Shown: piece by piece, positions 46,251 through 64,000 of the stretch
Layout of the letters: each line of letters begins with the position of its first letter
Position numbering within the stretch: position 1 is the first letter of the stretch
Assembly: GCF_026210795.1 (NCBI RefSeq)
Contig: NC_089429.1
Location: forward strand, 4,650,001-4,714,000
Reading direction: 5' to 3'
Source: Rhizophagus irregularis
Taxonomy: Eukaryota
Length of the DNA: 64,000 nucleotides
The notes under the pieces: model-generated
The model's database searches: none
What the model saw: only the letters and a program-made list of their open reading frames with translations
What the model was told of the DNA's origin: nothing
Program-made: the position numbers and the translations under genes

Positions 46251-47569
46251 TAATCCTACTATACTACTTTCCAATGGTTACATTTGACCACTTTTAGGGT
46301 CGAATAGACCACTTTTAACCATTACAAATAGATTTTCCTAAGTAAAGTGATTTATGCAGTAAGGTTACACAAAATTCAACTGCATATTTGCTTATAAACA
46401 GGCATCTTCCGGACCCATTGGTGAAATTTTTGTATCATCTTGTAACTAAAAAAAAAGTCAAAAACTTTTTATTAGGTTACACAATTAGTTCTGACCGGAA
46501 TTATAATTTGGCCAGAATTATGCGGTAAAAATCAACTCTTAAAATTATATATGTTGATCACGTGATCTGATCGTCAAAATAAATATGACGACGCGAAATG
46601 TTTTTGTTTGTTTTTTTAACCTTTTAACTTTTCTTCAACTTTCTTTTAAAATATTAGGTAAGAAAAACTTGTGTTCTTTATCTTTTTATTTTCCTAACTT
46701 TTTACATTTTAATGTTACTAACTTGCTTTCTTCACTAACTTCATACTTTTTTTTTGGGTTTTGTTTTTTATCGCACCCGCGATATGTCGCAAGGGCATGC
46801 GCCTCCTAATTTTATTGGCGAAAAATTTTTTTGTGGCGCGTCAAATTTCAATTGTAACACGATCTTAAAAAATTTTTTTTTAAAAAATTCTTCGATCTGT
46901 TTTGGTTTCTTTGTCCCTACCCTTTAATAAAAACAAACCTTTACATTTCTTTTCTAATTACGTTTTCATTAAAAACATTGTTTATCATGTTTATATTCGA
47001 TGGTTGGTTTCTTTTTTCTTCTTTTTTGTCTTGTTTTGAAAACTACACTAAAGGTTTTTTTTCTTTTTTCAGGTCCTTTGCGTTGTGGATTTTGACGTTA
47101 ATATCATTTGAAAAGAGACTTTTCGTTCTTTAAAGACTCAGTAGGTGAAGTTTAATACACCGTGTTTAATAACCTTAAAAACACTATTAACGATTTTTTT
47201 TTTTACTTTAGATTCTTTCACTTTAGATTCTTTTCACAACGGAAGTTTAATGTCAATTTCGTTACTCTTCCTTCTTCTCATTTGGAAAAAATATTGGTAA
47301 GTGTCGGTTATATAGACTATGAACTAATTTAAACGGCCTCTTCAAAGTTTTTGTATATGTATTAACCTCTTGTAAACAATATTAACCAATTTTTTTCTTT
47401 TTTTTAGGTTCTTTAATTTGATTTCCTTTCTAAAGAAGACCTCTTACTTTCCACTTTGGCGAAGTCTCAGTAGGTGTTATTCAGGTTGTTGGTGTACGGG
47501 AAGCTTTTAGAAACAACACTAACAAGTGTTTTTTCTTTTTTTTTAGGTTTTTTTTCGTTGTAAAAGCTA

Positions 47570-47940
47570 AGATTTACCGCCAATTGTGTTTTTTTTCATT
47601 TCGGTAGGTGTTATATAGGTTAATAGTGCATGTAATAACCTGTTATAAATGATATTAATGAGTTTTTTTCTTTTTTTAGGTTCTTTCACGTTGTTAAAGC
47701 CAAACTTTAAAGCTGATCTCATTTTTAAGGTACCTTTGTTACCTTTCACTTCGGTAGGTGTTATATGGGCTAATGGTGTATGTAATAACCTATTATAAAT
47801 GATAATATTAATGAGTTTTTTTTTCTTTTTTTAGGTTTTTTTCACGTTGTTAAAGCCAAACTTTAAAACTGATCCCATTTCTAAGGTACCTTTGTTACCT
47901 TTCACTTCGGTAGGTGTTATATGGGCTAATGGTGTATGTA
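47570..47940. repeat. Left inverted arm of the MULE: tandem repeat units
   Basis: Tandem units starting TTCGGTAGGTGTTATATGGGCTAATGGTGTATG; the reverse complement recurs at 51137-51590. Confidence 0.85.
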
Positions 47941-48211
47941 CTATATAGTAGTCTTTAAAATGAATTAATGGTTTTTTTTTCTTTTTTAGATTCATACGGA
48001 TGTAGTTCACCCGACAATGATGATACAGCAAGTGTAACAAGTACGACTAGTGAACATGAAAAATGCACATGGAAACTCTGATGTCTTCTATTTCGGAGAT
48101 AATAAATAGATTAGTGGTGTATGTATATCTTTGGGAAGTATTAGTGAAGATTTAATTAGGAGGCTTAATAAACTTTATTGTCAAATTTAAAGATACTTTA
48201 GCATTTGATAA

Positions 48212-50631
48212 CTATCTTAAAATATTACAATTTCGCTTATTATGACCCATATCACCACAATTTCCACATTTATATTGTTTACTATTTACTGAAGTCGTAG
48301 TCTTTTCTTTTTCATGGCTTGCTTTAATTCGTTTTGTACCCTTCGGGCATCCTTTAGACCTGGTTTGTTTATTAGGATTATTGAGAATAAAAGGAAAATT
48401 TTCCTTATCAGATTCATCATCTTTTGTATCTTCTAATTCGATATTTTCATTTTGTTCTTCATCTTGTTCTTCATCAACATCTTTTAAGTAATTCTCCAAA
48501 ATATGTATTATACGTATATCCCTTTTACTAACAGCTTTCATAGTAGCTTTATGTGATAAGCCAGCAATTTTACCATATAATTGTATGTCTGTAAGTTGTT
48601 CATGCCGAGTAATAAATTCTTGTGATGTTTTGCAAATTGCAGTTAAAAATGGAACATTATGTTGAGAAATAAGAGGTGTAATCTCATTTTCAAATTTGCT
48701 AGCAACTAAAAATTGCTCTTTACTAGGATCTTTATCTCTATAATACCATTGTGAAGGAATAAGTCTTAAATGGAATCTTGCTGCAGGACTACGAAGCATT
48801 ATTTGAAAATAATGCCTGCAAATAATTCCTCGATTAATAAGAGATAGACAAGAGCAATAATGAGATCCATTTATTAATAAGATAATAAAATGTTTCTCAA
48901 CAAGTTTGTTTTCAACATTTACAGCCCACATAGATGAAATTTGATCTTTATTAATGTTGGAAATCATACATGCTGCAGTTATTTGACGAGCATCAGATAC
49001 ATCTTCCAAATATTGACCTAATAAGAGATCATACTGCAAACACATGTAATAGCAATGTTAAATCAAGTAAAATACAAACATAATAAGTATACAATTATTA
49101 TTGTAATATATACTTTATCAAATTCATCAATTACTTCTTGGGTAACTTGTACAGCATTATAAAAAACACACTGACGAATTTCATCTCTTTGAAGTTCTAA
49201 TATGGCAGGAGGCAAATATTCTTCAAGTTTTTGGTTAATAGAAGTAAACATGAACGCAGCAGTGGAAATCTGAGTAGGCATACAGGGAATAGCAGCTTTC
49301 CATAACACAAGTTGATATTTTTTGTTTTCTGCCATTTGTCTTCTCTCTATTACATCCCCAAGTTCACATAAAGAAATATTAGAGTTAAAAATATAACTTT
49401 TAATCCATGCATTAATGCTTTCTACAGGAGAAGATGCATGGAGTCCTGCAGTAAATTGGTGACATGTCCAAGGATGAGCCCATGATTCTTTAGTATTATA
49501 AAGAGTATTTATCAAATATTGCTGTATTTCAGGATATTGAGTAATTAATTTTCTCCATTCTGATTCAAAGGAAAGTGTGTTTAGTGTATTACGTACAGCA
49601 TGAAATTTTGTAAAAAACTCTTGAAATTTATTTCCAATTAGTTTTTGAACCTTTTTAATCAAATTTTGGCTAATATGAAAAGTGCAATGCATCGGGTATG
49701 TGGTAGGAAATGTAGACCTAATCGCAGCATATACAGCTGGATCTGCATCTGTCATTATTACTTGTGGATACACATTATTTGTTGCTAAATTGAGTTGTTC
49801 AAATGACCATTCATGTGATTCTTTTGTTTCATCAATTAATAATGCTTGTGCAACAAGTCTTACATTCCGATTTTCATCAAGAATAATAAATAAACTTAAA
49901 GCCATCTCATACCTATTGGTTTTACAAGTTACATCTTGTACCACAATATCTGAATACCGATACCATAATTCTAACTGAGATGGCGTCATCCAGAATAAAT
50001 GTGTAAGAGTATTATTATTATCAAATTTGATCGCAACCTTCCACATTGGATTATTTTGTGATAATTCAAGTAATTTCGTATACAATTTAGCTGCATCATT
50101 ACTATCATCTTTATTTTGTGGACGAAAATGTTGAATTGCTTTATACAAATCATTATCATAAATTATTTGTCCTGGGAACTTTGCTTCAAGATATTGTCTT
50201 TGTGTAGCAGCTCCCATTCTGCATTTAATAGTAAGAAATTCAATCTCCTTCATAATTTCAGGAGGTATGTATTTGTTATCTCCAAATTGAATGATATTAG
50301 GATTAAGATTATGTGAATGGATATCATGAAGTGTTGTAATATAAACATATTTAAAAGGATTTTTAGAGGTAGGTTCTGATAAATTAATATGCCAAGCACA
50401 GCCTAGACGTTTTGTTGTTGTCTCTTTATTGGATTTTGTAACATAATTACCATGATGTTCACATTGTGCAGTACGTCTACGAAAAGTTCCATCAGATTTT
50501 TTCTCAACACGACTATATATGATATTAAACCCTTGCTGCTTTGCCCGACTTTCAATAGTTTCAAATGCTTGCTTCCAAGTGGTGAAAGCCTTTCCTTGAT
50601 ACAAAACTGGTTCAGAGTTTTCTTGTTGCAT
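48212..50631 (-). CDS. FAR1-type Mutator/MULE transposase, two exons
   Basis: FAR1-like C...CxWHI...HxH region, DVTCKTNRY, VIMTDAD, HCTFHI, PVESINA, SWIM finger CSC...GIICRH and CGNCGDMGHNKRNC knuckle. A phase-0 GT-AG intron at 49034-49113 joins the two ORFs. Confidence 0.9.
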
Positions 50632-51136
50632 TGTAGTAAACAAAGGTATAAGGTGTGTAAAAAGCAAAAAAAAATAAAGGGACGTACAAAAAAATTAGGT
50701 AAACAAATAGTAACTTTTGTGTTACAATCACAATTCATATATTTACTAGCCAATAAAATTAAGCATTGTCCGCACACTAATATTTTCGTTTATTCAGAAC
50801 TAAAACCAAGTTAATGACATTTATAAAAGCAATAACATATACTATTAGTCCTATCAACACTTTACCGAAAATGAAAAGTCTTTTTTTAACAAGATTTAAA
50901 ATTAAAATTAAGCTTCTGCAATAAAAGAAGTCTTTTAATATAATATTTACCAACTCTCTATCAAAATAAAAAGACAATACCATCAAGAAAGTAAGAAAAG
51001 TAAGGATTAATCATTAATTATTAGACCTTTTCTATATAAGAATTTTATGTGTATGTAATTAATTACTTTATTAAAAAAATTGTTAAGCATCCTGGTTCCT
51101 AATTTATATACTTTAATCATTTCCAAAGGCTGTTTC

Positions 51137-51590
51137 ATACACCATTAGCCCATATAACACCTACCGAAGTAAAAAATAACAAAGGTACCAAAAAAATGGA
51201 GAAAAAAGGATTTATACCATTTATCCTGGTAGAGCGTTAGAATTTTTCCGCCAAACAATTTCTACTAGTCCTTTATTACCTGGTATGTTTCGTCCGACGG
51301 TATCAGCTTTAAAGTTTGGCTTTAACAACGTGAAAACCCCTAAAAAAGAAAAAAAACTCATTAATATTATCATTTATAATAGGTTATTACATACACCATT
51401 AGCCCATATAACACCTACCGAAGTGAAAGGTAACAAAGGTACCTTAGAAATGGGATCAGTTTTAAAGTTTGGCTTTAACAACGTGAAAAAAACCTAAAAA
51501 AAGAAAAAAAAACTCATTAATATTATCATTTATAATAGGTTATTACATACACCATTAGCCCATATAACACCTACCGAAGTGAAAGGTAAC
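51137..51590. repeat. Right inverted arm of the MULE, cut off by the Polinton-like insertion
   Basis: Reverse complement of 47570-47940; the last unit breaks at GAAAGGTAAC(A) instead of continuing AAAGGTACC. Confidence 0.85.
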
Positions 51591-52060
51591 AGTCGTCGGG
51601 CTGGATGTGGGAGGTGCAAGCACCACCCACCTCTGGGTCTAACGACCCGTCGCAGTACCTATTTGGACCTTGCAGGTCCCAGGAATCCCCATATATACTA
51701 CCACCATGGCCACAGTGGCCATGGCTGGTCACACTACTTTCCAACTCCTTTTTTTTATCCATTTTTTCTTATACATAAAACTACTATGACCACTATGACC
51801 ACTATGACCAGACTACTAAAAAGTGGATAAAAACGCGAATAAAGCCAAAATCAGACAGAATATCCGGTCATAGTACTGGCCACAGTTCGAAAAACTTATG
51901 ATAATACTATGGCCACCTTAGTTAGCCCCTCAGGCTCCAAAACCCGATTTAAGCTATGACCACCCTTTATCTACATACCTGGGACACCGAACTATGCCAC
52001 TGAACTATGACCGCCGAACTATGACCGCCGAACTATGACCACCGAACTATGGCCACTTTC
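51591..52060. repeat. Non-coding left terminal region (probable TIR) with reiterated ACTATG(A/G)CC motifs
   Basis: About ten ACTATGACC/ACTATGGCC copies, including tandem GAACTATGACCGCC units near 52002-52055. The matching right TIR is not in the window. Confidence 0.6.
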
Positions 52061-52113
52061 CCCGTCAGAAAAAATAAGTAATTGAACAATGGGTATACCA
52101 TAAGTAATATACA

Positions 52114-52551
52114 ATGATGAACTTACACGCAGCCACTTATCTTGCCAAAAACCTCGGACTTGATCTTGTAGACATCTATGGAATCCGTAAATGGATCCAA
52201 ATGCGGGCATCGCCCCTCAACGACCCGGATATAGTAGCAGAAATAGTCAGAAACCTTCCGGCCAAAGAATTTGGAAAGCACCTCAAAATAAACAGACTCT
52301 GGTACAATTGTTGTAAAGCCGAGTTGTGGAAGCGATATGAGAAAGCCGAGGAGGCATACGACAGGGCAGTAGAAAAGAAGGAAAAAGCGGGGGATGCTCT
52401 TGGTCAATCATTTGAGGAAGAGGGTATTGGAAATCGTGAACTTCATGAGCTTAATTGGAAGGAGTATCAAAAGGCTTATAAAGAGTTAACGGACGCTAGA
52501 AAAGAGCAAATAATGGTAAGGTGGGCTCTTGAGCGGTGTGGATTTCACTAG
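52114..52551 (+). CDS. Small F-box-like protein with helical C-terminus
   Basis: PDIVAEIVRNLPAKEFGKHLKINRLWYNCCKAELWK fits the F-box pattern. Confidence 0.55.
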   Translation: MMNLHAATYLAKNLGLDLVDIYGIRKWIQMRASPLNDPDIVAEIVRNLPAKEFGKHLKINRLWYNCCKAELWKRYEKAEEAYDRAVEKKEKAGDALGQSFEEEGIGNRELHELNWKEYQKAYKELTDARKEQIMVRWALERCGFH

Positions 52552-52786
52552 ATATACGTGGATTGAAAAGGGGGAAGGGAAGATTTAGAGCAGTCGTAAA
52601 GGTTCGTGGTTTATAGTTTTTTTTTACCCCTAAAAGATAACCAGATATAACCGGAGGACCGCAGAACCGCAGGACCACAGGACTACAGGAGGGTAACCTG
52701 GTAGGAGTGCAGATCTTTGGAAAAAAATATTCGGCAATTGAAGATTAGGTAACTATAAATTAGTACTCGATTTGATAGAACAAAAA

Positions 52787-55215
52787 ATGGCCGCTCAAGT
52801 TCCAGCAATCTTTAACCCCAACAACCGTTTCTTCTACGATGACCTTCTTAAAAAGTGTATAGGTACACACACAAAAGAAAGCATCAATTCAGCAATCTCA
52901 GCTTCTGTGGCTTTCATCACCACGAAGTCCGGCATGTGGATCAGAAAAAGAAGGCTTATAATGGAAGCATATACTTCGAGTTTGCTGCAGATCTCAAGGG
53001 AATTTCTACTAAGCACAAGGTAAGTATTCGGTCAGATGCAGGAGAAGATGATGGTATGACCACATCCATCAAGTTAAAGGACCTTCTTATCCAAGCCTCA
53101 GTCACAAAGATCTGTTATACAGATGTTAATTTCATGCCTTATCCCCCAAATGCACCAAAGTATAATCCTGAATTCTTCAATCTCTTTCTAGGTTTCAGGG
53201 CTCAACCCGCTGAGCACATCAAACTGAACCTAGTTAATCCAATCATTCGACATGTTCATGAGGTATGGTGTGCAGAGGACAAGCAGTTAACCACGTACAT
53301 CCTCAACTGGCTTGCATTTCTGGTTCAAAATCCTGACAAAAAACCCGGTACAGCAATTATTATGCGCAGTCCCCCCAGATGTGGTAAGAATATCTTAACC
53401 GATTTTATCGGAGAACGTATTCTCGGCCGTGAAAACTTCCTCTCCACTACGCGTCTTGAAGATGTAATGGGAAGGTTCAATGCGGCTGTTCGTGCCAAAA
53501 AACTCATTATCCTCAATGAATGTGATATGACAGGCAAGGAATGGCATGGAGCAAATAATTGACTCAAGAGTTTAATCACTGAGCCTTACATCTCTATCGA
53601 GGAAAAAGGAATAGATGTGAAGGTTATTGATGACTTTGCTGGCTACATGATCCTGAGTAATCATGCTATGCCAATTCGCATAGAAATGGGAGATGAAAGA
53701 TTTGTAGCTCTTAACGTCTCAGCCAAATATAAGGGTAATCGAGAATACTTCAGTTCTCTAGTAAAAGTATTAGAAAATCCAGATACAGCCAGTTCCTTCA
53801 TGTCCTATCTACTTAGCCGAGACTTAACTAGCTTCAATCCCCGATCTATTCCTGATACTCAAATGAAACAGGAGCTAATTGAAGCAAGTATTCCAAATCC
53901 CCAGCGTTTCATACAATATTACCTTGAAATGATGTGGCCCGACAATTGTGATACACTTGAAATTCCTTGTACAAATTTCTATAGCACTTACCAGAATTGG
54001 TGCAGTGAGAAGGGCGAAAACAAAACACTTAGTGATAATAAGTTTGGTATGGAGATTAAGCAATTTATTCCTAAAACTCGCCCAAGACGTTCAGGTGCTA
54101 GAATAAACTATTACATACTAGATAAAGCAAAAATTGCGAAGAATTTTAGTAGAGTAATCCAGGAGACACAAGACATACAGGAAGCACAGGTAGATCAAGA
54201 GGAAGTAGAGCCAGTTGTTGAGAAACCTGCTAAGGAAAAACCCGCTTCTGTCGAGAAGAAGCCTACTGAAGAGAAACCAGTTTCCAAAAAGACTCCACCA
54301 CCAGTACCACTTAAGCCCGATTGCTTGAAGGTAAAACCCGCACCTGTCATCAATGAGGATCCTATTCCTGAGGAATCTCCAGCTCCTATAGAGTCAGATA
54401 CTGATGAACCTATAGATAGCTTCTCGGACTGTTATCTATCTGATGAGGAACCTGATCAAGAAAATGAGCCGCCTGCTGAGGAACCTGCATTTAAAGCTGA
54501 TGATGACTATGACGTTTTAGATGACTTGCTATCTGACTCAGATTTTACAACTGTGAACCCAGCTCCTGAACAACAACCCGAGTCTCTCGCAGAATCTTCT
54601 GCATCTGTCACTAAGCCTGACCCAGAACCGGCTCCTGAAGAGCAACCTATCCCAGAACCCGACACAGAACTAGAAGTTGACTGGGACCCTGAACCAAAGG
54701 AAGGTACTCGAGCACACTGGGCTTGGCATGAAAGGCACCGATGGGATTATAAGCCATGGGTCAAGAATTCAAAGGACCAGGTCTTCAATGATCTTTACAA
54801 TACAGGTAAGGATTTATGGGCTAAGTACCAAAACGCGTCAGACGAGTATGACTGGGAAATACTCGCGTTTGAAGTAGAGGAATGTCCCACAACACGTATT
54901 GAAGACGAGTACCAGTACTACCTTAGGGAAGTAGTAGACCGCTTCAAGGACTGGATCGAATATAATGGATACTTATCTAAAACACCTAGCCGTAAAGAGC
55001 TTGCAGATTTAATAAGAGCATATAAGGAGGATCATGATGCCGAGATTATCCCTACTACCTCCGGTTATGAAACTATGAAGATGAATAAGGGTAAGGCACG
55101 AGAAATCCCAGAGGAGTGTCCAAAGACCGAGATGGAACGCCAGTGGGAGGCCGCTAATGGATTTGTAGACGAGCTGGATATTGATGAGGCCTGTGATATG
55201 ATTGACTCCTTTTAA
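52787..55215 (+). pseudogene. Superfamily-3 (D5/NrS-1-like) helicase with long acidic, Pro-rich tail; disrupted
   Basis: ILNWLAFLVQNPDKKPG, Walker A SPPRCGKN, Walker B IILNE, motif C MILSN, winged-helix-like FYSTYQNWCSEKG. Frameshift near 52945 and in-frame TGA at 53560-53562. Confidence 0.8.
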
Positions 55216-55298
55216 TAAGATAAGCGCCTCTTAGTTATCTTATATTTTTTATATAAAAAACCTATATTACAATTGAATACAATTCATAGTTATATCAA

Positions 55299-57181
55299 AT
55301 GGCCTATTCAAAAATTGCACGCGCTTTACCTACAAGACCAGATATCAAAGAACTACAGTATTCAGGCGCAAGATTTTCTAGAGGAGCTATTGCCAGACTT
55401 GGACAGCAACTCCAATCCCGGTATCCGACACATAAATTTCAGATTCTGCTCCCCTATGAAAACTGGAAACCCGGTGGATGGACATCAGGAAACCAACCAG
55501 CCAGCCTCTTCTCACTCTTGGACCACTATGATGAAGCACAACTACCAGATGATGCAGATCCTGATTACTTTGAACGATTCATAATTTATGTGAGAGATGC
55601 TCCACCGGTTGCAGGGGGATGCAATGGAGAGCTAAATGATTGCCTGTATGAATGCCTGAAGCATATCTATGGTATATTCTCTAAAATACCCAAGACTATA
55701 AAAAAGCCTGAATATATCAAAAAGGCATTAGGTCTCAATCGTGATGCTCCAGTTCCAGTCTCATATATGGATAAGATTGAACAACTTGCAGGAAGCCTTG
55801 CACTTAATATTGTAGGGGATTCCACTCGAATTTCCAAGAGCAAATCTGACAGACGTGCAACCCTCATCCTATCTGAAGGCCACTACTCTCTTGCACTGAA
55901 TCCCGGAAGACTTCACCCTAGTAAATTAGATAGAAAACAAAAGTCTCCCTTTGTTTATCGTGAAGATGGGGTTAATAATGTAGTAACAATATACAATGGT
56001 AAGACAGTTAAGTCTCTTACAGTTGGACAGTTTCAGAAAGGTAAGAACTCTGATAGTTACTCCTTCATCCCTATCGAGAAGAATTGTAAAACTGGAATAT
56101 ATGAAACACTTGAGGAAACATACCAGAGGATCCATGAAGAGCGGGATTCCTTCCTACAGGCTACAAAGAAGTTCGGTCTAGGAATCGACTTATCTTACCA
56201 CAACTGGTCATACAAGAGAACTGCACTCTGGCTTTTTGAACGGTTTAGTGTAGGGGTTCCAGCCAATGATCCTCTTGACCCAGTCGAAGCAGAGTGGATA
56301 AGTGATGCAATGATGGGAGGTCTTATCTGGGCAGACAATGAATGGAAGGGCTATGGAAGGCAATACGACGTGACAAGTTTGTATCCAAGTATTCAGCAAT
56401 CAAATGCAAACTTTCCAATCCGACAAGGTAAGTTTCAAATACTCAAAGACTTTGTAGACCATAGAGGTTATGCCTTGTATGGATTATTTCGTGCCAGCTC
56501 CCAGAGAGCGCCCCAAAGGGCAAGGTAAGTGGTAATGACATTCTCTTCCGACAGAATAAGAGGGGAGTCTATACATTCATTGACTTACAACGAGCAAAGA
56601 AACTTGGTCTCGATATACAGTTAATCCAGGATGGAAAGCCAAATGCCTTGATATATGACAGAGAAGCAAGAATTCCTGGGACTGTAATATTTGGTGAGTA
56701 TGTCCACTTTCTCTTCAATATAAAGAACCAGGGTGGCGTGGCCGGTCGTGTTGCAAAGAGAGTTCTCAATACACTATGGGGAGCACTCTGCCAGAGGAAA
56801 CGCAATTACAAGACACTCACCACAGATCAAACAGATCCATTCAAGTTTCCAGAAGGCCACACACTTGACTCCATCGTACCAGTAGGATCTGACCAGTGGC
56901 GATTCCAGTTCACAAACCCAGGTAGTCCCTTCAAGGGTGAGTATCCTAGGATCGCTCCATTCTTATTAGCACATGGACGGAAGACGACTTCAGAGTTATT
57001 AGAACCATATAAGGATAAAGTACGACGCATCCATACAGATGGATTTATTCTAGAGGAACAGCCGAGTAGTCCTACACTTATCACTTGTCCAGAAAATGCA
57101 TCCAAAGCATTGAAAGCTCTCAAGTTTGAAACCGCAGGATACTGCCATGTGAAAAATGCAAACAAGGTTATCTGGACATGA
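55299..57181 (+). pseudogene. Family B DNA polymerase, protein-primed type, split by a frameshift
   Basis: Motifs YDVTSLYPS, AKRVLNTLWG and IHTDG; removing 26 nt (56496-56521) gives one ~618-aa frame. Confidence 0.85.
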
Positions 57182-57294
57182 TTGCCAAGAATGCGGTTGG
57201 ATTTACAGTAGGTATATATATTTTTTCTTGCTTGAATGTAAAGTCAATTTGAAGATTCCTATTTATTACAAAGTACAAAAAAGTATAAGGAATC

Positions 57295-57765
57295 ATGTCA
57301 ACATATACCGAATTAGCAAGCATTATTAACAGCACTGACAGCATTAGTGATAAAGTTATTTATGATGCATCACACAATCAGTTCACCATTGTCTCTGATG
57401 AAACTGTCCTTAAGATTATCCGTGCATTGAAAGACACTATAGTAGTCGCATTAGTATCTGGGTTTAGCAAAACCAGCTACCTTGTCCAGGATCATGTGAA
57501 GTATATCAAGCGAATCCAGACGGCAAATTCTCCTGTATCATATGTGAAGTTCGTGGCCAGAAAACTCTTCCCAGATAATGCAGCATATACTGCTAAGATA
57601 GCAAAGATTCGTGAATCATACAAGAATAAACAAGCTCTTTTAGACAAACTTGAGGCCCTCTTCGAGTTGTATTATAATGTAACTAAGGACTCATTAACAG
57701 GTTCCCCAAAGCGAGCTGTCACTATGAATGAGGCTGAGAAAACCTTAGCAGAACTTCTTGCATAA
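57295..57765 (+). CDS. Hypothetical protein (156 aa)
   Basis: ATG ORF in the gene-dense element with the shared upstream motif. Confidence 0.7.
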   Translation: MSTYTELASIINSTDSISDKVIYDASHNQFTIVSDETVLKIIRALKDTIVVALVSGFSKTSYLVQDHVKYIKRIQTANSPVSYVKFVARKLFPDNAAYTAKIAKIRESYKNKQALLDKLEALFELYYNVTKDSLTGSPKRAVTMNEAEKTLAELLA

Positions 57766-57858
57766 GTGGCTCCTGTATGAATTTAGTTTATATTTATTAT
57801 CCATTTGTAATGGGCATACAGTAATTGAAGATGGCTATAGTATAAGTAACATAACATC

Positions 57859-58275
57859 ATGTTGGACCGATTACCAGTAGAAATAGTCGAACGCATTGTT
57901 GCAAAGATCCCAGATACTGACCTTATTGCAGCGAGTAAAGTAGATAGTGTGTGGTGGCAGGAGGTTCGTCAAGAAGCATATAAGAGATGGAAAAATTATG
58001 CTACTACAATTGGGCATGTCCAAGCTCTTGGAAAGCCGTTTGAAAAAAGGAATATTGACTGGATATCATTTGAAGATGTAAACGACTTCTATAAAAGATG
58101 GATAGACCGCCTCACCGAGGATCAGCTTTATATTATGGAGAAAATGCTTAGGAATGGGATGGTCGTGGACCCCCAAGAGAGGGAAACCATAGAGCATGCA
58201 TTAAGTGAACAAAGATGGGGAGGCGACCCTTGGGGACTGAACTGGGAGTGGAACGAATGGACTCAACAGGAGTAG
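57859..58275 (+). CDS. F-box protein
   Basis: N-terminal LDRLPVEIVERIVAKIPDTDLIAASKVDSVWW fits the F-box consensus. Confidence 0.75.
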   Translation: MLDRLPVEIVERIVAKIPDTDLIAASKVDSVWWQEVRQEAYKRWKNYATTIGHVQALGKPFEKRNIDWISFEDVNDFYKRWIDRLTEDQLYIMEKMLRNGMVVDPQERETIEHALSEQRWGGDPWGLNWEWNEWTQQE

Positions 58276-58276
58276 C

Positions 58277-58435
58277 TTATTTATCGGGTATCCTCATATT
58301 TCTCGACAAGGACTGATGACCATGTAACCTTATCATCAGGTATCCTTGCATTTTTTCGACAAGGATTGATGACCATGTAACTTTATCATCAGGTATCCTT
58401 GCATTTTTTTCGACAAGGACTGATGACCATGTCAC
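58277..58435. repeat. Three tandem ~52-bp units forming alternating hairpins
   Basis: TATCATCAGGTATCCTTGCATTTTTTCGACAAGGA(C/T)TGATGACCATGTAAC repeated. Confidence 0.85.
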
Positions 58436-58493
58436 TTGGTTATTGTAAATTGAAGAAAACTATTAGGTATGTAGACACATACAGAAAAAAGAC

Positions 58494-59075
58494 ATGTCTT
58501 ACCCTTATATAGCTAACCCTATAACTGGACGTCCAATTATTATCGGTGGAGATACCTTTAATCGAATAGTTATGGAATCCCATGATTATATTGATGGAAG
58601 GCTTGTCCGTAGACAAACTGCACCTCCACCTGAAGAGCAACCTGTATATTTAAATACAGATACAGGACGTTATGTTCGACGTGGTACTAGAACATATCAT
58701 AGACTGATTGAGAGTGACTATGAGGTAGTTGAGGATTACTACCTTGTCCATTATGAAGAAGAGGCGCTTATAGAGGAAATCATCAATGAAACACGCTATA
58801 ATGAGGAAAATCTTGATGGGCAGCGGTTAACTTTCAATGATATACAACAAATCAGGGCCGCTATTCAGGCTGACCAAGATGAATATGATGATTTTATCTT
58901 ACAGCAGGATACGACTAACGGGACACCTTCCTCCGGTCCTTCCGGTCGTCCACGAACTTTGGAGGACCATACCCCGAGACTTGCAGAGCTTAATATTGAG
59001 TTGTGTAGGGAATGTCTCATGCCTGTAAGCCCAAGTGACTTAACGGACAAGTTGTGCAAGGACTGCTCTGAATAG
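58494..59075 (+). CDS. Protein with two NPxTGR-type motifs (2-cysteine-adaptor-like) and C-terminal CxxC...CxxC
   Basis: NPITGRPIIIGGDTFNRI and NTDTGRYVRRGTRTYHRL; CREC...CKDC. Confidence 0.65.
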   Translation: MSYPYIANPITGRPIIIGGDTFNRIVMESHDYIDGRLVRRQTAPPPEEQPVYLNTDTGRYVRRGTRTYHRLIESDYEVVEDYYLVHYEEEALIEEIINETRYNEENLDGQRLTFNDIQQIRAAIQADQDEYDDFILQQDTTNGTPSSGPSGRPRTLEDHTPRLAELNIELCRECLMPVSPSDLTDKLCKDCSE

Positions 59076-59120
59076 TTACTTAATTTTGAATAATTCTTTT
59101 TTACATAAAGAAAGATAGCC

Positions 59121-59681
59121 ATGTCAACATCAATCGTAATAAACCAGTACCAAAACTGTGGAGTAATCACTCCAAAAACAGCACATAGAGGATTATCCAG
59201 TGTATTATACAGACAGATTATAAAGAAGATTAGTGATGAGAATGACCCTCTACAAGCCTTGGGACTTGCTAGGGATAAGTTAGTTCAGATCATTCGTCGG
59301 GCAAGTAATGTGGACTTTACACAATTGTTTACACAAAGACTGGATATGAAAATTATAGATGGAGAGCCATATGAAGATATTAGGAAGTGGCTTCTCGAAC
59401 AGCTTATAGCCATAGGTTGTGATAGTGGAGAAATTGCCTTATATCAATTTCTAAGGGGTACATATCCAGATGGTATCGACGAGCCTTTCAATACATTCTA
59501 TAAGAACTATGTAAATCATATAAGTAATTCAATGACTAAGAACTTTGCTTCTCGTGCCTTAGGAGCAATAGGGTTGAAGGCTAAGATGTTAAGGATTGAC
59601 TTTGAAGGCCGTAAAAAAAGTGCTATGATTCTTAGAGCTTCTGCAAACGAATTACTTGATATTCTCACAAGATACTATTAA
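59121..59681 (+). CDS. Hypothetical protein, possible C-terminal winged-helix DNA-binding region
   Basis: 186-aa ATG ORF; FNTFYKNYVN...TKNFASRALGAIG resembles D5 C-terminal helices (weak). Overlaps the ATPase stop by 17 nt. Confidence 0.6.
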   Translation: MSTSIVINQYQNCGVITPKTAHRGLSSVLYRQIIKKISDENDPLQALGLARDKLVQIIRRASNVDFTQLFTQRLDMKIIDGEPYEDIRKWLLEQLIAIGCDSGEIALYQFLRGTYPDGIDEPFNTFYKNYVNHISNSMTKNFASRALGAIGLKAKMLRIDFEGRKKSAMILRASANELLDILTRYY

Positions 59682-60888
59682 TCCCTACTTGTAATGCTCG
59701 ACGGTCCATGTGGCTCTTAGAAAAGATCTGTAGAAGGACTTCAATACCTTCTATTATTTTTTTATTATCCAGAGGGCGACTAGACTTCAGGGCTTCATAT
59801 CGGGAGAATAACTCCTTCACATTCTCAGTTTTCAGAGTTTCAGTCTTTGCAGTCCTACCCTGTACTTTTGCTAAGAAATCCTGAAAGTCAGCTCCTAGGG
59901 TCTTACCAGAAAGTCCATAAGCTTCCCGAAAGACAAATTTAATCCAGGTATCTGTATTCTTGGCTAAGACACCAGGTACAAGTAAATGTTGACGCTCTTT
60001 AGGGGATGGAAATACCCGAGCAAATTCAATCAAGTGTCCACCTTTTTTTGCTTCAAATACAGCTTTCTGACCATAGGGACTAAACTTGGATTGAACTGTG
60101 ATTGAACTGGGTTCAGACTGAGATCGAACTGGGTTCAAACTTGGATCAAACTGAGATTGAACTGAGATCGAACTAGGATTGAACTGAGATTGCTCTGTGA
60201 TCGAACTGAGACTAGTATCCCATCTTACTCGAATGGACAGTGGATCACTTTTGGACCGTCTAAGATCAAACACTACAAATTCACGTTGCAGAGTAAGATC
60301 ATCAATTACTGGTGCTAATGACTCTGATTCTTCTGTATATTGGCGGATGATTCTCTTGGTATCTGTAAGGCTCCCATGACCTCCATGCAGTGAGATGTAG
60401 TTAACATTTTCTCGAATAGCCTTAGGAATGGCAAAGAATCTTTGGGCTACATAAATACATGAAATATTTTTGTGTCGTCCATGTGTAAAGTAACCAGTGA
60501 TGAGATCCTGGATTTTTTTAGGTGCATCCATCAGATCCTCAAAGATTACCACAGTAGCTTGAGTAGGGTCGAAGGAGTCAATCTCTGGAATCTCACTATG
60601 GGTTACTGCAGTGAATGGGATCTTCTCCTCTTCGAAAAAATCATGTACAACTGCCCACTTTGGCTCGTCAAGATATCTGCCAACTAAAAGTACTGCATCA
60701 CATAGTACATACCGATTACCATCCTCCTTTGCCTTCTTGTCACCCATTAACAAGTTAATAATCATAGTTGTCTTACCTGAGTCTGAGCTACCTGCTACGG
60801 CTAATCGAAAGGGCCATGATGGAGCAAACTCATTGCCTTGTCTTGAGTCGGTCGTGTACTCATCCAAATTGTATACATAAAGATCCAT
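59665..60888 (-). CDS. A32-like (FtsK/HerA superfamily) genome-packaging ATPase
   Basis: Walker A GSSDSGKT, Walker B VIFED and THGRHKNISCIYVAQRFFAIPKAIREN (GRH and sensor Q), as in Polinton/NCLDV packaging ATPases. Confidence 0.9.
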   Translation of the reverse strand: MDLYVYNLDEYTTDSRQGNEFAPSWPFRLAVAGSSDSGKTTMIINLLMGDKKAKEDGNRYVLCDAVLLVGRYLDEPKWAVVHDFFEEEKIPFTAVTHSEIPEIDSFDPTQATVVIFEDLMDAPKKIQDLITGYFTHGRHKNISCIYVAQRFFAIPKAIRENVNYISLHGGHGSLTDTKRIIRQYTEESESLAPVIDDLTLQREFVVFDLRRSKSDPLSIRVRWDTSLSSITEQSQFNPSSISVQSQFDPSLNPVRSQSEPSSITVQSKFSPYGQKAVFEAKKGGHLIEFARVFPSPKERQHLLVPGVLAKNTDTWIKFVFREAYGLSGKTLGADFQDFLAKVQGRTAKTETLKTENVKELFSRYEALKSSRPLDNKKIIEGIEVLLQIFSKSHMDRRALQVGINSIL

Positions 60889-60919
60889 TTGAATTTTATT
60901 CTAACTTAGTTTAAATACT

Positions 60920-61717
60920 ATGTCGACATCAACACCAATTCCAGTTTATACTCCTTCAGAACCTACTGGACCGCCTCCTGCACACTTGGCTAATGAAGAA
61001 GACGATGATGAATTAGTTAGAATACTAAAGGCTCATGCAAATTTATTGACTACCAGGGGTCGTTTAACTGTTGATTCAGAGATACAGGAGGCAAATAATC
61101 AAATCAAACATATTATTAATATATTAATGTATCGCTGTAAAGCAAAACATGAAGAACTTGGTATTACAAAAGATTTGTTAGTTTTTGCACAAGGTAAGAT
61201 AAATGCATTTGATGAAACGTTTACTAATTTAGAACGTCAATTAGTTATTATACGTGCTGCCAATGATAATTTCATAGAAGAAAACCATAACCTGCAAAGA
61301 GATTATGATACTATGGTAGAGCTTCGTCGACGGGCTATAGGTGAACGTAATCAGGCACGACATGAACGTAATGTATTACAAGCAGATTATACTCAAGCAG
61401 TAATGGATCGTAATGAGGCTCAAAATGCTGTGAATCGTGGTAATATCCTTCTAAATCATTGGCGGCTGAGGGCTACTCGGACTGGAGGACAACTTGTATT
61501 AGTTAATGCGCAACTTGGACAGGTTAATGTACAGCTAGCACATGCTAATAATAGGGTGCGTTTTGGGATTCAGACATTAGGGAGACTTAGAAATAGACTT
61601 TTCCAACAGATAGCTGCTCTTAGAATTCAGGTACAATGGTTTCGAATTAGACAATTGAACCCTCTTCCACCTCTTTTAAACAATCCACTAGAGACGATAT
61701 GGCTACCACTGCAATAG
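60920..61717 (+). CDS. Coiled-coil protein upstream of, and overlapping, the Gag-like ORF
   Basis: 265 aa with heptad-like ERNQA/ERNVL/DRNEA repeats. Confidence 0.75.
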   Translation: MSTSTPIPVYTPSEPTGPPPAHLANEEDDDELVRILKAHANLLTTRGRLTVDSEIQEANNQIKHIINILMYRCKAKHEELGITKDLLVFAQGKINAFDETFTNLERQLVIIRAANDNFIEENHNLQRDYDTMVELRRRAIGERNQARHERNVLQADYTQAVMDRNEAQNAVNRGNILLNHWRLRATRTGGQLVLVNAQLGQVNVQLAHANNRVRFGIQTLGRLRNRLFQQIAALRIQVQWFRIRQLNPLPPLLNNPLETIWLPLQ

Positions 61718-63153
61718 GATTGCCAATTTTTGAGGGTAAAGCTACTGATGATATTGATACATTTGTTAGGCTTTATATGGGTTATCTTGATACTATTAAT
61801 CTTAACCCGTATGCTGCTGGAGGGCCACCAGAGTCTTGGAAAAGAGCTATGGGTATACTTAGAAGCTGCATGGCCGGTGAAGCGGCTGAATGGTTTGATC
61901 GAGAAATTACAGGAAAAAATTGGGAACTTTCTAGTATTAATTCAGCTGGTGGAGCTAATTTAGCTGCTTTTGTAGCATTAGTAATACCAGAAGGTGCAGG
62001 AGGACCAAATGCAGGTACCTATGTAAATGGGTCTGAAGCACAAATCTATTCAAGAGATATAAATAATGCATTAGCAACTATTAGAGCAACATTTATTCCT
62101 ACCCATGATTTAATAGGTGGAGATAAAGCTTGGGGAAGAGCTGGTGCTCGTCCGACAGATAGAGTTGCTCCAGCTACTGCAGATGCTGGTGTTGCTGCTG
62201 CTAATAATCATCCTATAGTTTTTCCAGGTATTAAACCTAACCAGGCGCTTTATTGGCTTAGAACACAATTTCCAACTATTTTAGATGAAAAGAAACGTAT
62301 CCGTTTTAACAGTCTTTATCAGGAAAATGAGCCAGTTGATGCATTTTATAGAACTGTAAAGAGGGCTGGAAAATTACTAAAACTAACTGATGATCTTATT
62401 ATCGACCAGTTCTTTAGAGGTCTTTCGGCTGATAATATTTTTGAAGCAGAAAGGTTTAGTAATCTTAATCCTGATGACTTGGTTAAACATCTGAGAAATT
62501 TAGAACGAAGAAGGGCTGAAATGCGCTTGGGGTTACAAGATAGAAATCGACGACTTCAAGCAGATTACAGTGATGTAACTCAACCTCCGTTAGGAAAACA
62601 GGAACCTGTCGTACTGACATCAAAGTCATCTGGGGTTACTCAAGAACAATTACAAAAGTTACTTAAGGCTCAAGCTGAGGAACTTACCAAGAATTTTCAG
62701 GTGCAATTTAAACAATTACAAGCTCGGCCAGTTCGTAATCCACCAGTCTATAGACAGCAGATTAAACCTGTTCGACCAAAACCACAGAGACGTGTTGTTC
62801 AGGATCCTCAGGATCCTGATTGGGATGATGGTTATGTAGATCATGATGTTGGTGATGACCCTGATGCTCCTGAGTGGACTTTGGATGATCATCAAAATGC
62901 TATTGATCTTATTATGGGATATAAACGTGGGACGTCTAAAATACTTACAAAACAACTTCAGAAGGCTAAAGATAAACGTGATGATCTGGATTTGGCCCGA
63001 GCAATGAGAAACCTCGATCTTAATGATGATACTATGGACATTGATACTGCGAGTTTTGGTGAAAAGGTAGAATTGAGAGAAAAAGATGGTGATGTCTATA
63101 TGGTTCGTGTTGGGTCAAAAAAAAGTAGGTTCGAGTATCTCAAAACTTCTTAA
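61699..63153 (+). CDS. Retrotransposon (Ty3/gypsy-type) Gag/capsid-like protein
   Basis: LPIFEG...IDTF, MAGEAAEWF, major-homology-region-like LYQENEPVDAFY and DQFFRGL in the canonical order; no CCHC knuckle. Confidence 0.72.
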   Translation: MATTAIGLPIFEGKATDDIDTFVRLYMGYLDTINLNPYAAGGPPESWKRAMGILRSCMAGEAAEWFDREITGKNWELSSINSAGGANLAAFVALVIPEGAGGPNAGTYVNGSEAQIYSRDINNALATIRATFIPTHDLIGGDKAWGRAGARPTDRVAPATADAGVAAANNHPIVFPGIKPNQALYWLRTQFPTILDEKKRIRFNSLYQENEPVDAFYRTVKRAGKLLKLTDDLIIDQFFRGLSADNIFEAERFSNLNPDDLVKHLRNLERRRAEMRLGLQDRNRRLQADYSDVTQPPLGKQEPVVLTSKSSGVTQEQLQKLLKAQAEELTKNFQVQFKQLQARPVRNPPVYRQQIKPVRPKPQRRVVQDPQDPDWDDGYVDHDVGDDPDAPEWTLDDHQNAIDLIMGYKRGTSKILTKQLQKAKDKRDDLDLARAMRNLDLNDDTMDIDTASFGEKVELREKDGDVYMVRVGSKKSRFEYLKTS

Positions 63154-63865
63154 GTCGTCCCCAAATAAGACAGCAGTTAGCTCTTCTAGTGTGCCATTGA
63201 AAGGCAAAGCAACCCCTGTTAAGATTCCTGTGAAAGTTACTGGTAGTAAGTTTACACCTGCAAAAGCTGTTACTAAGAATGACTTATTAAGCCTGTTAAG
63301 GTCTGCAGACTTTAGGAAATTACTCCGTGAGATTCTTCAGGAGGAGTTATTGTCTGCTAGAAAAGTCACAGAGATTCCGGAGGACCTAGTTGAGGAGGAA
63401 CAAGAAGAGGATATCAGGGTAGATGATCCTATGGATATTGACATAGCTCGTTTAGAGAATACTAAAGATCTTTTAGCACTGGATGGGGAGGTTAATGGGA
63501 TAGCAATTCAGTGTTTAGCAGACACTTGTGCTAATGCGTCTTTTATTCAGAGAGAAGCTGCTGAGGAATTAGGGTTGGATATTGACAAGAGTATTACATA
63601 TAACATATCTGGTGCTTCAGGAACAGGTAGGACATTCGGCATGGTAAAGGGAGTGACAATCAAACTTACCCCTGATTATGCTATCACTGAGGACCTTGCA
63701 GTCTTAAGTGGTTACAAGCATAGGGAAATTGGGTTAAGCCGAACGTGTCTGAAACGTTACAATTATGATGTCCATGAATCACGTGAACATATAGCCTTTA
63801 CCTGTGATGGGAAGAATGTTTTTATCCCGATAGTTCCTGATGCTAATCGAGGGGATAAAAAATAA
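63086..63865 (+). CDS. Retropepsin-like aspartic protease, in the +1 frame relative to Gag
   Basis: GEVNGIAIQCLADTCANASFI (DTG-like DTC), flap ISGASG and IGLSRTCL (ILGxD-like). True start uncertain. Confidence 0.8.
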   Translation: MVMSIWFVLGQKKVGSSISKLLKSSPNKTAVSSSSVPLKGKATPVKIPVKVTGSKFTPAKAVTKNDLLSLLRSADFRKLLREILQEELLSARKVTEIPEDLVEEEQEEDIRVDDPMDIDIARLENTKDLLALDGEVNGIAIQCLADTCANASFIQREAAEELGLDIDKSITYNISGASGTGRTFGMVKGVTIKLTPDYAITEDLAVLSGYKHREIGLSRTCLKRYNYDVHESREHIAFTCDGKNVFIPIVPDANRGDKK

Positions 63866-63890
63866 GACCCTTTAATTCTTCTATTTTTTT

Positions 63891-64000
63891 TTATTCCCAA
63901 AATTTGCGAATTAAGTCAGGAACATCCTCCTTCAACTGGTCAGCAGGTTCCCAAGTAGCCTCAGTGTCTGGATAGCGCTCCCACTTAACCAAATACTGGT
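63891..64000 (-). CDS. C-terminal chromodomain of a gene entering from the right, probably the Polinton-type integrase
   Basis: Manual translation QYLVKWERYPDTEATWEPADQLKEDVPDLIRKFWE* matches the chromodomain consensus YLVKWxGY...TWEP; not in the ORF track. Confidence 0.8.
   Translation of the reverse strand, partial: QYLVKWERYPDTEATWEPADQLKEDVPDLIRKFWE

Follow-up and report, generated by a model that had tools for sequence, protein, structure and literature searches.

A likely giant-virus-type start and stop code in the genes of a Gag-carrying Polinton/Maverick of a Rhizophagus-type fungus

Results

Genes and borders of the element

The right part of the window (the whole analysed stretch of 64,000 nt) holds an element that we identify from its genes as a multi-copy Polinton/Maverick of a Rhizophagus-type fungus. 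The following features were assigned there.

51591..64000, no strand: Polinton/Maverick-like element, continuing beyond the right window end
52114..52551, plus: ORF145, accessory gene, no Pfam match
52787..55215, plus: D5-like superfamily-3 helicase (DUF5906, Pox_D5)
55299..57181, plus: pPolB (DNA_pol_B_2, E 4.5e-5, under the Pfam cut-off)
57295..57765, plus: ORF156, no assigned family
57859..58275, plus: F-box-like gene (weak match, E 0.009)
58494..59075, plus: 2C_adapt gene (weak 2-cysteine adaptor match, E 8e-4, below cut-off)
59121..59681, plus: ORF186, conserved family-wide, with a Cys pair in relatives
59665..60888, minus: A32-like packaging ATPase (Pox_A32, E 2.9e-9)
60920..61717, plus: coiled-coil protein gene
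61699..63153, plus: Gag-like protein, its predicted model fitting capsid (CA) domains
63086..63865, plus: retropepsin-type aspartic protease frame (Asp_protease_2, E 1e-8)
63117..63124, plus: A-run at the Gag/protease junction, A8 in the window copy
63894..63998, minus: chromodomain, tail of the rve integrase

The putative left edge (51591) was set where the inverted-repeat arm of a MULE transposon ends, and there the GC content climbs from ~0.26–0.30 to ~0.40. As in other Polintons/Mavericks, the D5-like helicase is accompanied by a protein-primed family B polymerase (pPolB, its polymerase motifs kept across alignment A3), an A32-type packaging ATPase (conserved in alignment A1) and an rve-chromo integrase. 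Only the chromodomain tail of the latter lies in the window; the integrase is complete (363–364 aa) at the related loci L010, L017 and L040, with rve and chromo domains in L010 and L017 (E 7e-6). Terminal inverted repeats were found in one lineage, where L050 at its left end and L017 at its right end share 123 nt with a 100% inverted match. A 6-bp target-site duplication is a further trait of Polintons/Mavericks.

The window copy is decayed. Its helicase is in three pieces, being a single ORF of 760–780 aa in L039 and L050; the helicase search returned no named relative among its matches. The ORF145 cassette is skipped by joints in other copies, and an L039 protein related to ORF145 contains an F-box. 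ORF186 groups by BLAST with the helicase family, and it obtained no family, structure or atlas assignment (best value 0.88, a lead only; pLDDT 37). No ORF for a double or single jelly-roll capsid or for a cysteine maturation protease was found on the overlapping L050 + L017 map, read from left to right repeat, or at other loci, with a subset of small ORFs folded. In place of this polintovirus/virophage capsid, Gag and the aspartic protease occupy the position expected for it. Neither RNA polymerase nor capping enzyme was present among the ORFs of the window or of 59 family loci, and the space between the terminal repeats of the one mapped lineage contains no RNA polymerase gene.

A positioned motif before element genes

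A sequence-only reading of this DNA had reported nine WWTTGAA 7-mers ending 21–44 nt before nine ATG codons. All nine were recovered at the same coordinates and with the same spacing, and they precede 9/11 element genes.

52080..52086, plus: AATTGAA, 27 nt before the ATG of ORF145 (52114); TA at +19
52736..52742, plus: AATTGAA, 44 nt before the helicase ATG (52787); TA at +19
55271..55277, plus: AATTGAA, 21 nt before the pPolB ATG (55299)
57247..57253, plus: ATTTGAA, 41 nt before the ATG of ORF156 (57295)
57823..57829, plus: AATTGAA, 29 nt before the F-box-like ATG (57859); TA at +18
58448..58454, plus: AATTGAA, 39 nt before the 2C_adapt ATG (58494); TA at +18
59084..59090 (entry 59084..59102), plus: TTTTGAA, 30 nt before the ATG of ORF186 (59121)
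60887..60916, no strand: back-to-back 30-bp element, ATTTGAA (plus, 60887-60893) ending 26 nt before the coiled-coil ATG (60920) and ATTTAAA (minus, 60916-60910) facing the ATPase
61645..61659, plus: AATTAGA (61645) and AATTGAA (61653, TA at +18), 47 and 39 nt before the Gag ATG (61699)

The word itself is frequent (counted on both strands, 162 matches over 51.6 kb of host DNA, and 21 within the element), and its information is low, with sites above 8 bits at 0.93 per kb of host DNA vs 0.12 in the element. Its placement was not reproduced by chance: the fixed motif reached at most 4/11 in 5000 dinucleotide shuffles of the 11 upstream 70-mers, and AT-matched host positions carry it in the same band 3.8% of the time, which bears out the enrichment over such DNA that the earlier proposal depended on. 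Allowing for the choice of motif (highest count for any 7-mer carrying no more than two two-fold degenerate positions, in any 24-nt band), 150 shuffles gave 4–7/11 vs 9 observed. A matrix built from 71 sites of relatives put all nine window sites among the top 30 of ~24,800 element positions, and in the element this matrix, trained on relatives only, gave its top score to ATTTGAA at 57247. Three nearer ATGs, 1, 2 and 14 nt after a motif, all precede the predicted start.

The signal in related loci

Among non-redundant starts from related loci WWTTGAA occupied the 21–44 band in 21/98 cases (null mean 2.6; maximum 9 in 1000 shuffles), and among the left-block starts in 12/29 (null 1.3). The motif is thus a conserved, positioned signal across the element family. 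These relatives were de-duplicated at 75%, which still leaves lineages that are not independent, and the family counts leave out L059, L060 and L062-L064; the seven outgroup loci (L059, L060, L062-L066) have WWTTGAA before 7/77 ORFs. Before pPolB all three non-redundant relatives keep the word, and before the helicase it is AATTAAA in another copy.

De novo EM on the 29 left-block starts converged on TAATT[G/A]AA (LLR 84.8 vs 30–35 in shuffles), the variable position being G in 56% and A in 44% of 25 left-block sites; the degenerate forms WWTTRAA and WWTTRRA used here were defined after the relatives had been seen. Most G-form sites (21/23) lie 20–42 nt from the ATG and one only lies nearer than 20. 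A TA dinucleotide follows at +18 in 18/24 left-block promoters (null maximum 13 in 5000), compared with 20/118 coding-internal and 66/571 host copies; in the window TA stands at +18 or +19 in 6/9 sites. The wider code is likely (T)WWTT[G/A]AA followed by TA at +18 as candidate initiator, and the motif likely represents the upstream half of a two-part core promoter with its TA initiator 18–19 nt on. The distance from G to this initiator is ~21 nt.

The two forms are unevenly distributed. AATTGAA predominates upstream of pPolB, F-box and ORF186 genes, and A forms prevail before ATPase (11/20) and integrase-side genes (5/8). A strict early/late split between G and A forms was considered and is not established, since left-block genes bear both (12 G and 10 A of 29) and 3/20 ATPases have the G form.

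The divergent ATPase pair and the Gag signal

No WWTTGAA had been noticed before the minus-strand ATPase, and this is correct as far as the exact word goes. The ATPase is nevertheless no exception to the code, as ATTTAAA lies 21 nt before its ATG, though this A-form site ranks only 151 in the matrix scan and has no TA at +18/+19. The two cores of the back-to-back element are 16 nt apart, a spacing kept in 8/20 non-redundant relatives and shortened to 15 nt in 2. We had also considered the copies at 60887 and 61653 as chance matches, their G not being kept in close relatives, and dropped this reading on finding the back-to-back pair conserved and the Gag signal embedded in the upstream gene.

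The Gag signals are embedded in the coiled-coil coding sequence. Relatives down to ~50% ATPase identity carry Gag and protease at the same place, and WWTTRRA occurs 25–62 nt upstream of 14/15 non-redundant Gag starts (band widened after looking), in agreement with the earlier suggestion that Gag belongs to the element's own programme. By Foldseek all top matches of the Gag model were CA domains, the best being the PEG10 CA C-terminal domain (E 6.7e-3), with none at E <= 0.001. The protease has no motif upstream in the window or in relatives (0/7). In all 11 relatives that gave a row the junction A-run is ~A9 with the protease in the -1 frame. The A-run is therefore read as a likely frameshift site, out of register in the window copy, and the protease appears to be made by -1 frameshifting. 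The predicted CA fold, the aspartic protease and the -1 junction are those of Ty3/gypsy or retroviral gag-pro. Reverse transcriptase, RNase H and LTRs were not found: after the protease come a stop, a T-run and then the convergent integrase gene.

T-runs after the genes

52617..52625, plus: T9 after ORF145, candidate terminator
55245..55250, plus: T6 after the helicase
57221..57226, plus: T6 after pPolB
58351 and 58404: T6 and T7 within 53-nt repeats 3' of the F-box-like gene
59097-59102: T6 of the gene preceding ORF186, within the spacer of the ORF186 motif
59757, plus: T7 after ORF186
59619-59613, minus: T7 on the ATPase strand
63884-63892, plus: T9 after the protease

Runs of at least six T were found within 110 nt of 8/9 window genes other than the coiled-coil and Gag genes (relatives 33/59 vs 0/19). 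ORF156 has no T6 run in this interval, and none follows the coiled-coil gene in the window or in 13/13 non-redundant relatives. Within coding sequence 11 sense-strand T6+ runs were counted vs 31.5 +/- 4.0 under synonymous shuffling, 9 of them in ATPase, coiled-coil or integrase genes, while A6+ was not depleted; taken by itself, the window shows no significant T6 depletion (1 vs 3.3, P 0.064). For comparison, T6 runs occur in 255/937 host intervals of 110 nt and after 3/7 host ORFs, and host ORFs show mild T6 and T7 depletion too, but there A7 is also depleted. The same short signal at a fixed distance before nearly every gene and a T-run after it likely constitute a start/stop code of giant-virus type, which suggests that transcription of the element may rely on machinery borrowed from a giant virus.

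Discussion

Comparison with known systems

Mavirus carries an rve integrase, pPolB and a helicase module, as the window element does. The mavirus/EMALE virophages of Cafeteria are also integrated, and a single motif recurs in the promoters of their genes, which is interpreted as dependence on a giant virus; in mavirus this is the CroV late motif TCTA and the capsid is of jelly-roll type, whereas the window element has an early TGAA type, a fungal host and Gag with aspartic protease in the structural block (PMC8547959). Two further small elements, the polinton-like virus PgVV-14T (10.1101/2022.07.28.501842) and the pltv transpoviron of pacmanvirus (PMC11788076), have the helper's early AAAATTGA-type motif upstream of a subset of genes, polymerase or helicase among them; the helper of pltv is related to asfarviruses. 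In both the helper was isolated and the motif is exact but restricted to some genes, whereas for the window element the helper is a putative one and the core WWTT[G/A]AA precedes nearly all genes.

The likeness to giant viruses and linear plasmids, put forward from the motif alone, is one of geometry and fails in exact wording. A TGA core lies upstream of the genes, as in poxvirus, asfarvirus and mimivirus early promoters, and with the TA at +18 and the T-runs the arrangement agrees with that of asfarviruses and poxviruses; exact AAAATTGA was found in 0/9 sites, the G is not invariant, and ATNTGA of yeast virus-like elements matches 2/9. ASFV is described as having TA initiators, short leaders (medians of 14 and 9 nt) and poly-T ends with a median length of 7 (PMC7163114; PMC7458399). 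The layout predicted for the window element, in which an AT-rich upstream element keeps a fixed distance to a TA initiator, leaders are short and transcripts end at T-runs, is shared with ASFV and vaccinia early promoters (PMC7163114; PMC7458399; PMC5294985). The G is invariant in the poxvirus element, whereas G/A varies here, and the asfar/pox sequence comparison is based on vaccinia AAAANTGAAAA and pacmanvirus AAAATTGA, not on the ASFV motif. In vaccinia early and yeast virus-like element promoters G occupies position 7 of 15, with 11–12 nt then to the start, which agrees with our G-to-initiator distance (PMC6211774). The yeast cytoplasmic elements pGKL1/2 are likewise fungal, with their UCS 20–40 nt before the start codons of monocistronic genes, but they bring an RNA polymerase and a capping enzyme of their own and have stem-loop ends, unlike the window element, which is chromosomal, has an integrase and lacks both enzymes (PMC6211774).

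The element almost certainly belongs to the Mavericks/Polintons described as expanded in Glomerales (PMC11952901; PMC8647823). Starrett et al. present in Fig. 5 a Gag/retropepsin element that is almost certainly of the same family; the legend lists Matrix/Capsid/NC/Pro and a D5-like helicase, and the text does not state the host (PMC8502044), with no match for Rhizophagus, Gag or retropepsin in the supplement. The accessible text of these three papers gives no promoter or terminator code for such elements, and our literature searches, with subscription papers outside their scope, retrieved none for fungal Mavericks.

Who reads the code

With a little better than even confidence, we propose that a co-infecting giant virus of asfar-like type supplies the RNA polymerase that reads the promoter, and that the T6-9 runs end the transcripts. 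Initiation would occur at the A near +19, leaving 5' leaders of ~1–27 nt; the left block would yield one transcript per gene, and the coiled-coil and Gag transcripts would be 3'-coterminal, ending after the frameshifted protease. The integrated element would stay silent, as mavirus does, until the giant virus brings polymerase, capping and initiation factors; replication by pPolB and helicase would come next, then possibly packaging in Gag particles and finally re-integration via the chromo-integrase. In R. irregularis a region related to Asfarviridae has been described that contains RNA polymerase and capping genes, and related polB genes occur in all five strains, but the region itself is present in one of the five only and has no major capsid gene, which counts against a helper (PMC10640383). 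Mavericks have recently expanded in this fungus, with many copies weakly methylated (PMC8647823), and a helper-free element explains this as easily. A scan of IMG/VR for the two-part pattern was indifferent (14/80 GVMAG rows vs 9/80 for a G-to-C control, P 0.37, among the matches listed).

A compact host promoter is a serious rival, though a less probable one. In this case nuclear transcription by RNA polymerase II, with host TBP, would use a TATA-like box and TA initiator, T-runs being U-rich 3' processing signals and the element an autonomous nuclear transposon or virus. The A forms (TATTAAA, TATTTAAA) do resemble TATA boxes ~25 nt before TA, close to the -25 to -30 known for such boxes (PMC5294985), and it is they that prevail before ATPase and integrase-side genes; AATTGAA, however, is no TATA box and outnumbers the A forms at pPolB, F-box and ORF186 genes. 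Recent high-copy expansion, the need of a chromo-integrase for the nucleus and the contigs of two metatranscriptome runs covering parts of the element, for which DNA origin is possible, all fit host transcription. Against it stand the overlap of two divergent promoters within 30 bp, the strand-specific T6 depletion and the host ORFs themselves, which have WWTTGAA within 70 nt in 0/7 and WWTTRRA in the band in 1/7 (seven window ORFs with unverified starts). In run X17, taken for RNA by guess, 5/7 of the listed skip joints have CT..AC ends, as expected of introns on the antisense strand, and GT..AG ends on the coding strand occur in none of them.

Binding of the motif by an element-encoded protein that recruits the host polymerase is improbable. 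ORF186 is the candidate, being conserved family-wide with its Cys pair and grouping with the helicases, whose later part matches Pox_D5 and RFX DNA-binding models; this has no backing from family, structure or atlas, ORF186 itself bears the motif, and a binder alone does not explain the fixed TA and the T-runs. We regard it as very improbable, and already largely refuted, that the motif is an AT-rich word placed by chance or a functionless relic: the word is frequent in host DNA and the window copy is decayed, but its placement stays enriched once the choice of motif is corrected for, and the enrichment reappears in diverged loci together with a second fixed element.

Possible significance

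To our knowledge, very little is known of double-stranded DNA viruses in fungi, and the mycorrhizal evidence consists of an integrated asfar-like region. Infections of this kind would have to be frequent if one of the fastest-expanding transposon families of these symbionts runs on a giant-virus code; the elements could then serve as virophage-like defence or be parasites. More tentatively, Glomerales Mavericks might be virophage-like satellites that depend on an asfar-like giant virus infecting mycorrhizal fungi, and in which retrotransposon Gag-protease has replaced the jelly-roll capsid, Gag is wired to a giant-virus-type promoter inside the upstream gene, and the A32 ATPase pumps double-stranded DNA into Gag particles. 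A captured Gag-protease put under the element's own control would be a possible capsid swap between DNA and reverse-transcribing elements. The code predicts a start base at ~+19, transcript ends at T-runs and the same layout in the asfar-like region, all testable with existing assemblies and 5'-end data. A scan of viral contigs with a single ATPase protein gave no matches, and the pPolB alignment led to two viral contigs; one of them, L066, combines a Sputnik-type capsid with the same trio of helicase, integrase and pPolB.

Organization of the element and its family

As far as a MULE transposon the window consists of AT-rich host DNA with a GC content of about 0.26; from about 51.6 kb through the window end GC is about 0.40. 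The main features are:

29314–30969, F-box-like host gene
33060–34454, 39827–40597 and 44530–45426, three host BTB/POZ genes, one with SPRY
47000–51591, MULE transposon (ORFs 49063–50631 and 48212–49045) between inverted arrays of about 150–156-nt units
51591–64000, Polinton/Maverick, starting at the exact end of the 207-nt perfect arm of the right MULE array
60055–60240, 11-nt tandem repeats in the ATPase gene (minus strand), giving a Ser/Gln-rich linker of varying length across the family
63086–63153, Gag/protease junction with eight A, out of register

The BTB/POZ and F-box-like genes belong to families that are typically expanded in these fungi. Pfam matches in the element comprise a D5-like helicase, a pPolB fragment, an A32 ATPase (minus strand), an aspartic protease and a chromodomain, with weak matches to F-box, 2C_adapt and Gag. 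This copy has decayed, with the helicase broken into three parts and a frameshift in pPolB. Many Rhizophagus irregularis proteins match the GC-rich part (ATPase up to 94% identity, Gag up to 97%), and in DNA runs contig depth across the element was well over that of the flank.

Alignment of the ATPase fetched 61 metagenome loci, of which 59 (42–100% identity) were kept and two at 29% set aside. One gene order recurs throughout the family: helicase, pPolB, accessory genes, ORF186, reverse ATPase, coiled-coil gene, Gag, protease and a reverse integrase composed of rve and chromodomain. Two overlapping loci of a single lineage, L050 and L017, match each other perfectly in inverted orientation over 123 nt at their opposite ends; between these ends neither a jelly-roll capsid nor an RNA polymerase ORF was found. 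The predicted Gag model (mean pLDDT 66) hit only capsid CA domains among the matches listed, PEG10 being the best (E 6.7e-3). Of 12 loci tried, 11 gave a row (L008, L010, L011, L014, L017, L021, L027, L040, L043, L052, L061), and in all 11 Gag closes with about nine consecutive A and the protease continues in the −1 frame, likely a programmed frameshift in a DNA element. Taken together, these features identify the element as a Polinton/Maverick carrying a gag-pro block. The family as such is already known, and its Gag block has probably been pictured: as far as the accessible text of these sources goes, Mavericks are known from Glomerales (PMC11952901, PMC8647823), and a Gag/retropepsin element with D5-like helicase is named in one figure legend (PMC8502044).

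A positioned, probable promoter motif

All nine WWTTGAA copies (52080–61653) that the sequence-only reading had noticed before element genes were found at their positions. Since host DNA also contains this word often, its placement was tested rather than its mere presence. It occupies the band 21–44 nt before ATG at 9 of 11 window starts, while none of 5000 shuffles with the motif fixed exceeded 4 of 11 and the best of all comparable motifs in 150 shuffles reached 4–7; both fall short of the observed value, so the positioning is not due to chance. The ATPase, supposed to be without the motif, indeed has no WWTTGAA copy, but the A form (WWTTAAA) is present at 60916–60910 with a weak score (rank 151).

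An out-of-sample set of 98 starts in 35 loci was taken from 186 with intact upstream DNA by removing those at least 75% alike, mutually or to the window; starts were chosen by protein N-terminus after the upstream sequences had been viewed, and a few doubtful ones were kept. The motif and band taken from the window reading precede 21 of these starts (null mean 2.6, maximum 9), including 12 of the 29 left-block starts (null 1.3). The form WWTT[G/A]AA, picked after looking at relatives, precedes 50 of 98 (null 11.6).

Table. Starts in relatives preceded by WWTT[G/A]AA
Left block: 22 of 29
ATPase: 14 of 20
Integrase side: 6 of 8
Gag: 5 of 15
Coiled-coil: 3 of 19
Protease: 0 of 7

The coiled-coil gene favours WWTTAGA, and WWTTRRA is found before 10 of its 19 starts (null 2.4). 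De novo EM on the 29 left-block starts gave TAATT[G/A]AA. A matrix trained on relatives puts all nine window sites among the 30 best of about 24,800 positions, but many host sites score as well: what marks the signal is its position rather than its information content. It is real and conserved, and probably a promoter code.

A candidate initiator emerged when left-block promoters were aligned on the motif, with T at +18 in 84% and A at +19 in 92%. At 18 of 24 promoters a TA begins at +18 (shuffle maximum 13 at any position), compared with 20 of 118 coding-internal and 66 of 571 host copies; six of nine window sites have it at +18 or +19. ATGs almost never lie less than 20 nt from the motif, and the three nearer ones in the window would be left out of a transcript whose start is near +19.

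The narrow space between the ATPase and coiled-coil genes holds two motifs in back-to-back arrangement, separated by 16 nt in the window and in 8 of 20 relatives and by 15 nt in two more; with this geometry the reverse of one core falls on the initiator position of the other. The putative promoter copy at 60887 is rescued by this conserved pair. For Gag, WWTTRRA lies 25–62 nt upstream in 14 of 15 starts, and ten of these have a TA at +17 or +18. Within the coiled-coil gene of eight lineages this motif is formed by Ile- or Phe-Arg codons WTT-AGA. AGA accounts there for 266 of 618 Arg codons, and constraint on the protein as well as common ancestry may play a part.

Runs of T6–9 follow 8 of 9 window genes within 110 nt (coiled-coil and Gag excluded) versus 16 of 213 plus-strand element windows overall. 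In relatives a T-run occurs within 80 nt after 33 of 59 genes other than coiled-coil and Gag versus 0 of 19 for these two. The sense strands of 77 coding sequences, taken from 16 selected loci, contain 11 T6+ runs where 31.5 ± 4.0 are expected, and A6+ is not depleted. Since host DNA is itself T-run rich (255 of 937 windows), these ends support the promoter/terminator reading but do not prove it. No description of the two-part promoter, back-to-back pair, embedded Gag promoter or T-run ends was found in the accessible literature on fungal Mavericks; promoter sharing with giant viruses is an already-known phenomenon.

Which polymerase reads the element

The predicted layout of the element is the one known from ASFV: an AT-rich TGAA core, a spacer of fixed length, a TA initiator, a very short leader and an end at a T-run, with one unit per gene (PMC7163114; PMC7458399). 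The predicted distance from G to start agrees with early promoters of vaccinia and with those of yeast VLEs (PMC6211774). Small elements with giant-virus promoters are known (mavirus/EMALEs, PMC8547959; PgVV, 10.1101/2022.07.28.501842; pacmanvirus transpoviron, PMC11788076), and polymerase and capping genes occur in an asfar-like region described from R. irregularis (PMC10640383), all as given in the accessible parts of these sources. On these grounds transcription by a helper appears the most likely reading, at somewhat better than even chances. Several points speak against it: the G position varies, no window site is an exact AAAATTGA, the A forms resemble TATA boxes, the family has recently expanded to high copy, and a scan of viral contigs for the pattern showed, among the matches listed, no difference from control. 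The identity of the polymerase, helper dependence and Gag packaging are steps that we infer from layout.

The main competing explanation, that host polymerase II reads these promoters, seems to us less likely, though a serious rival. In run X17, RNA by guess only, CT..AC joints at 56712–56821, 57257–57480, 57771–57921, 62613–62688 and 62878–62949 suggest host-made spliced antisense transcripts across element copies; this antisense splicing is the only RNA hint.

Variation among related loci

A viral contig (L066) combines a Sputnik-type major capsid protein with the same helicase, chromo-integrase and pPolB trio; its pPolB is 33% identical to that of the family, and its gene starts are TATA-rich, not WWTTGAA (2 of 12). 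In the L021 lineage (L021:106–1079) the protease has no adjoining integrase; the gene facing it encodes 165 aa and comes from a different conserved family. In L033 (2154–5681) the neighbour of the ATPase is a protein of 1176 aa that matches endonuclease VII, and a 172-aa piece clustered with it (L029:3155–3670) has polymerase-like motifs, which suggests a possible second polymerase type or a nested element. At window 51958–52721 other copies either lack the ORF145 cassette or part from the window sequence directly after the 52080 motif; it seems that accessory genes are exchanged as units of promoter, gene and terminator.
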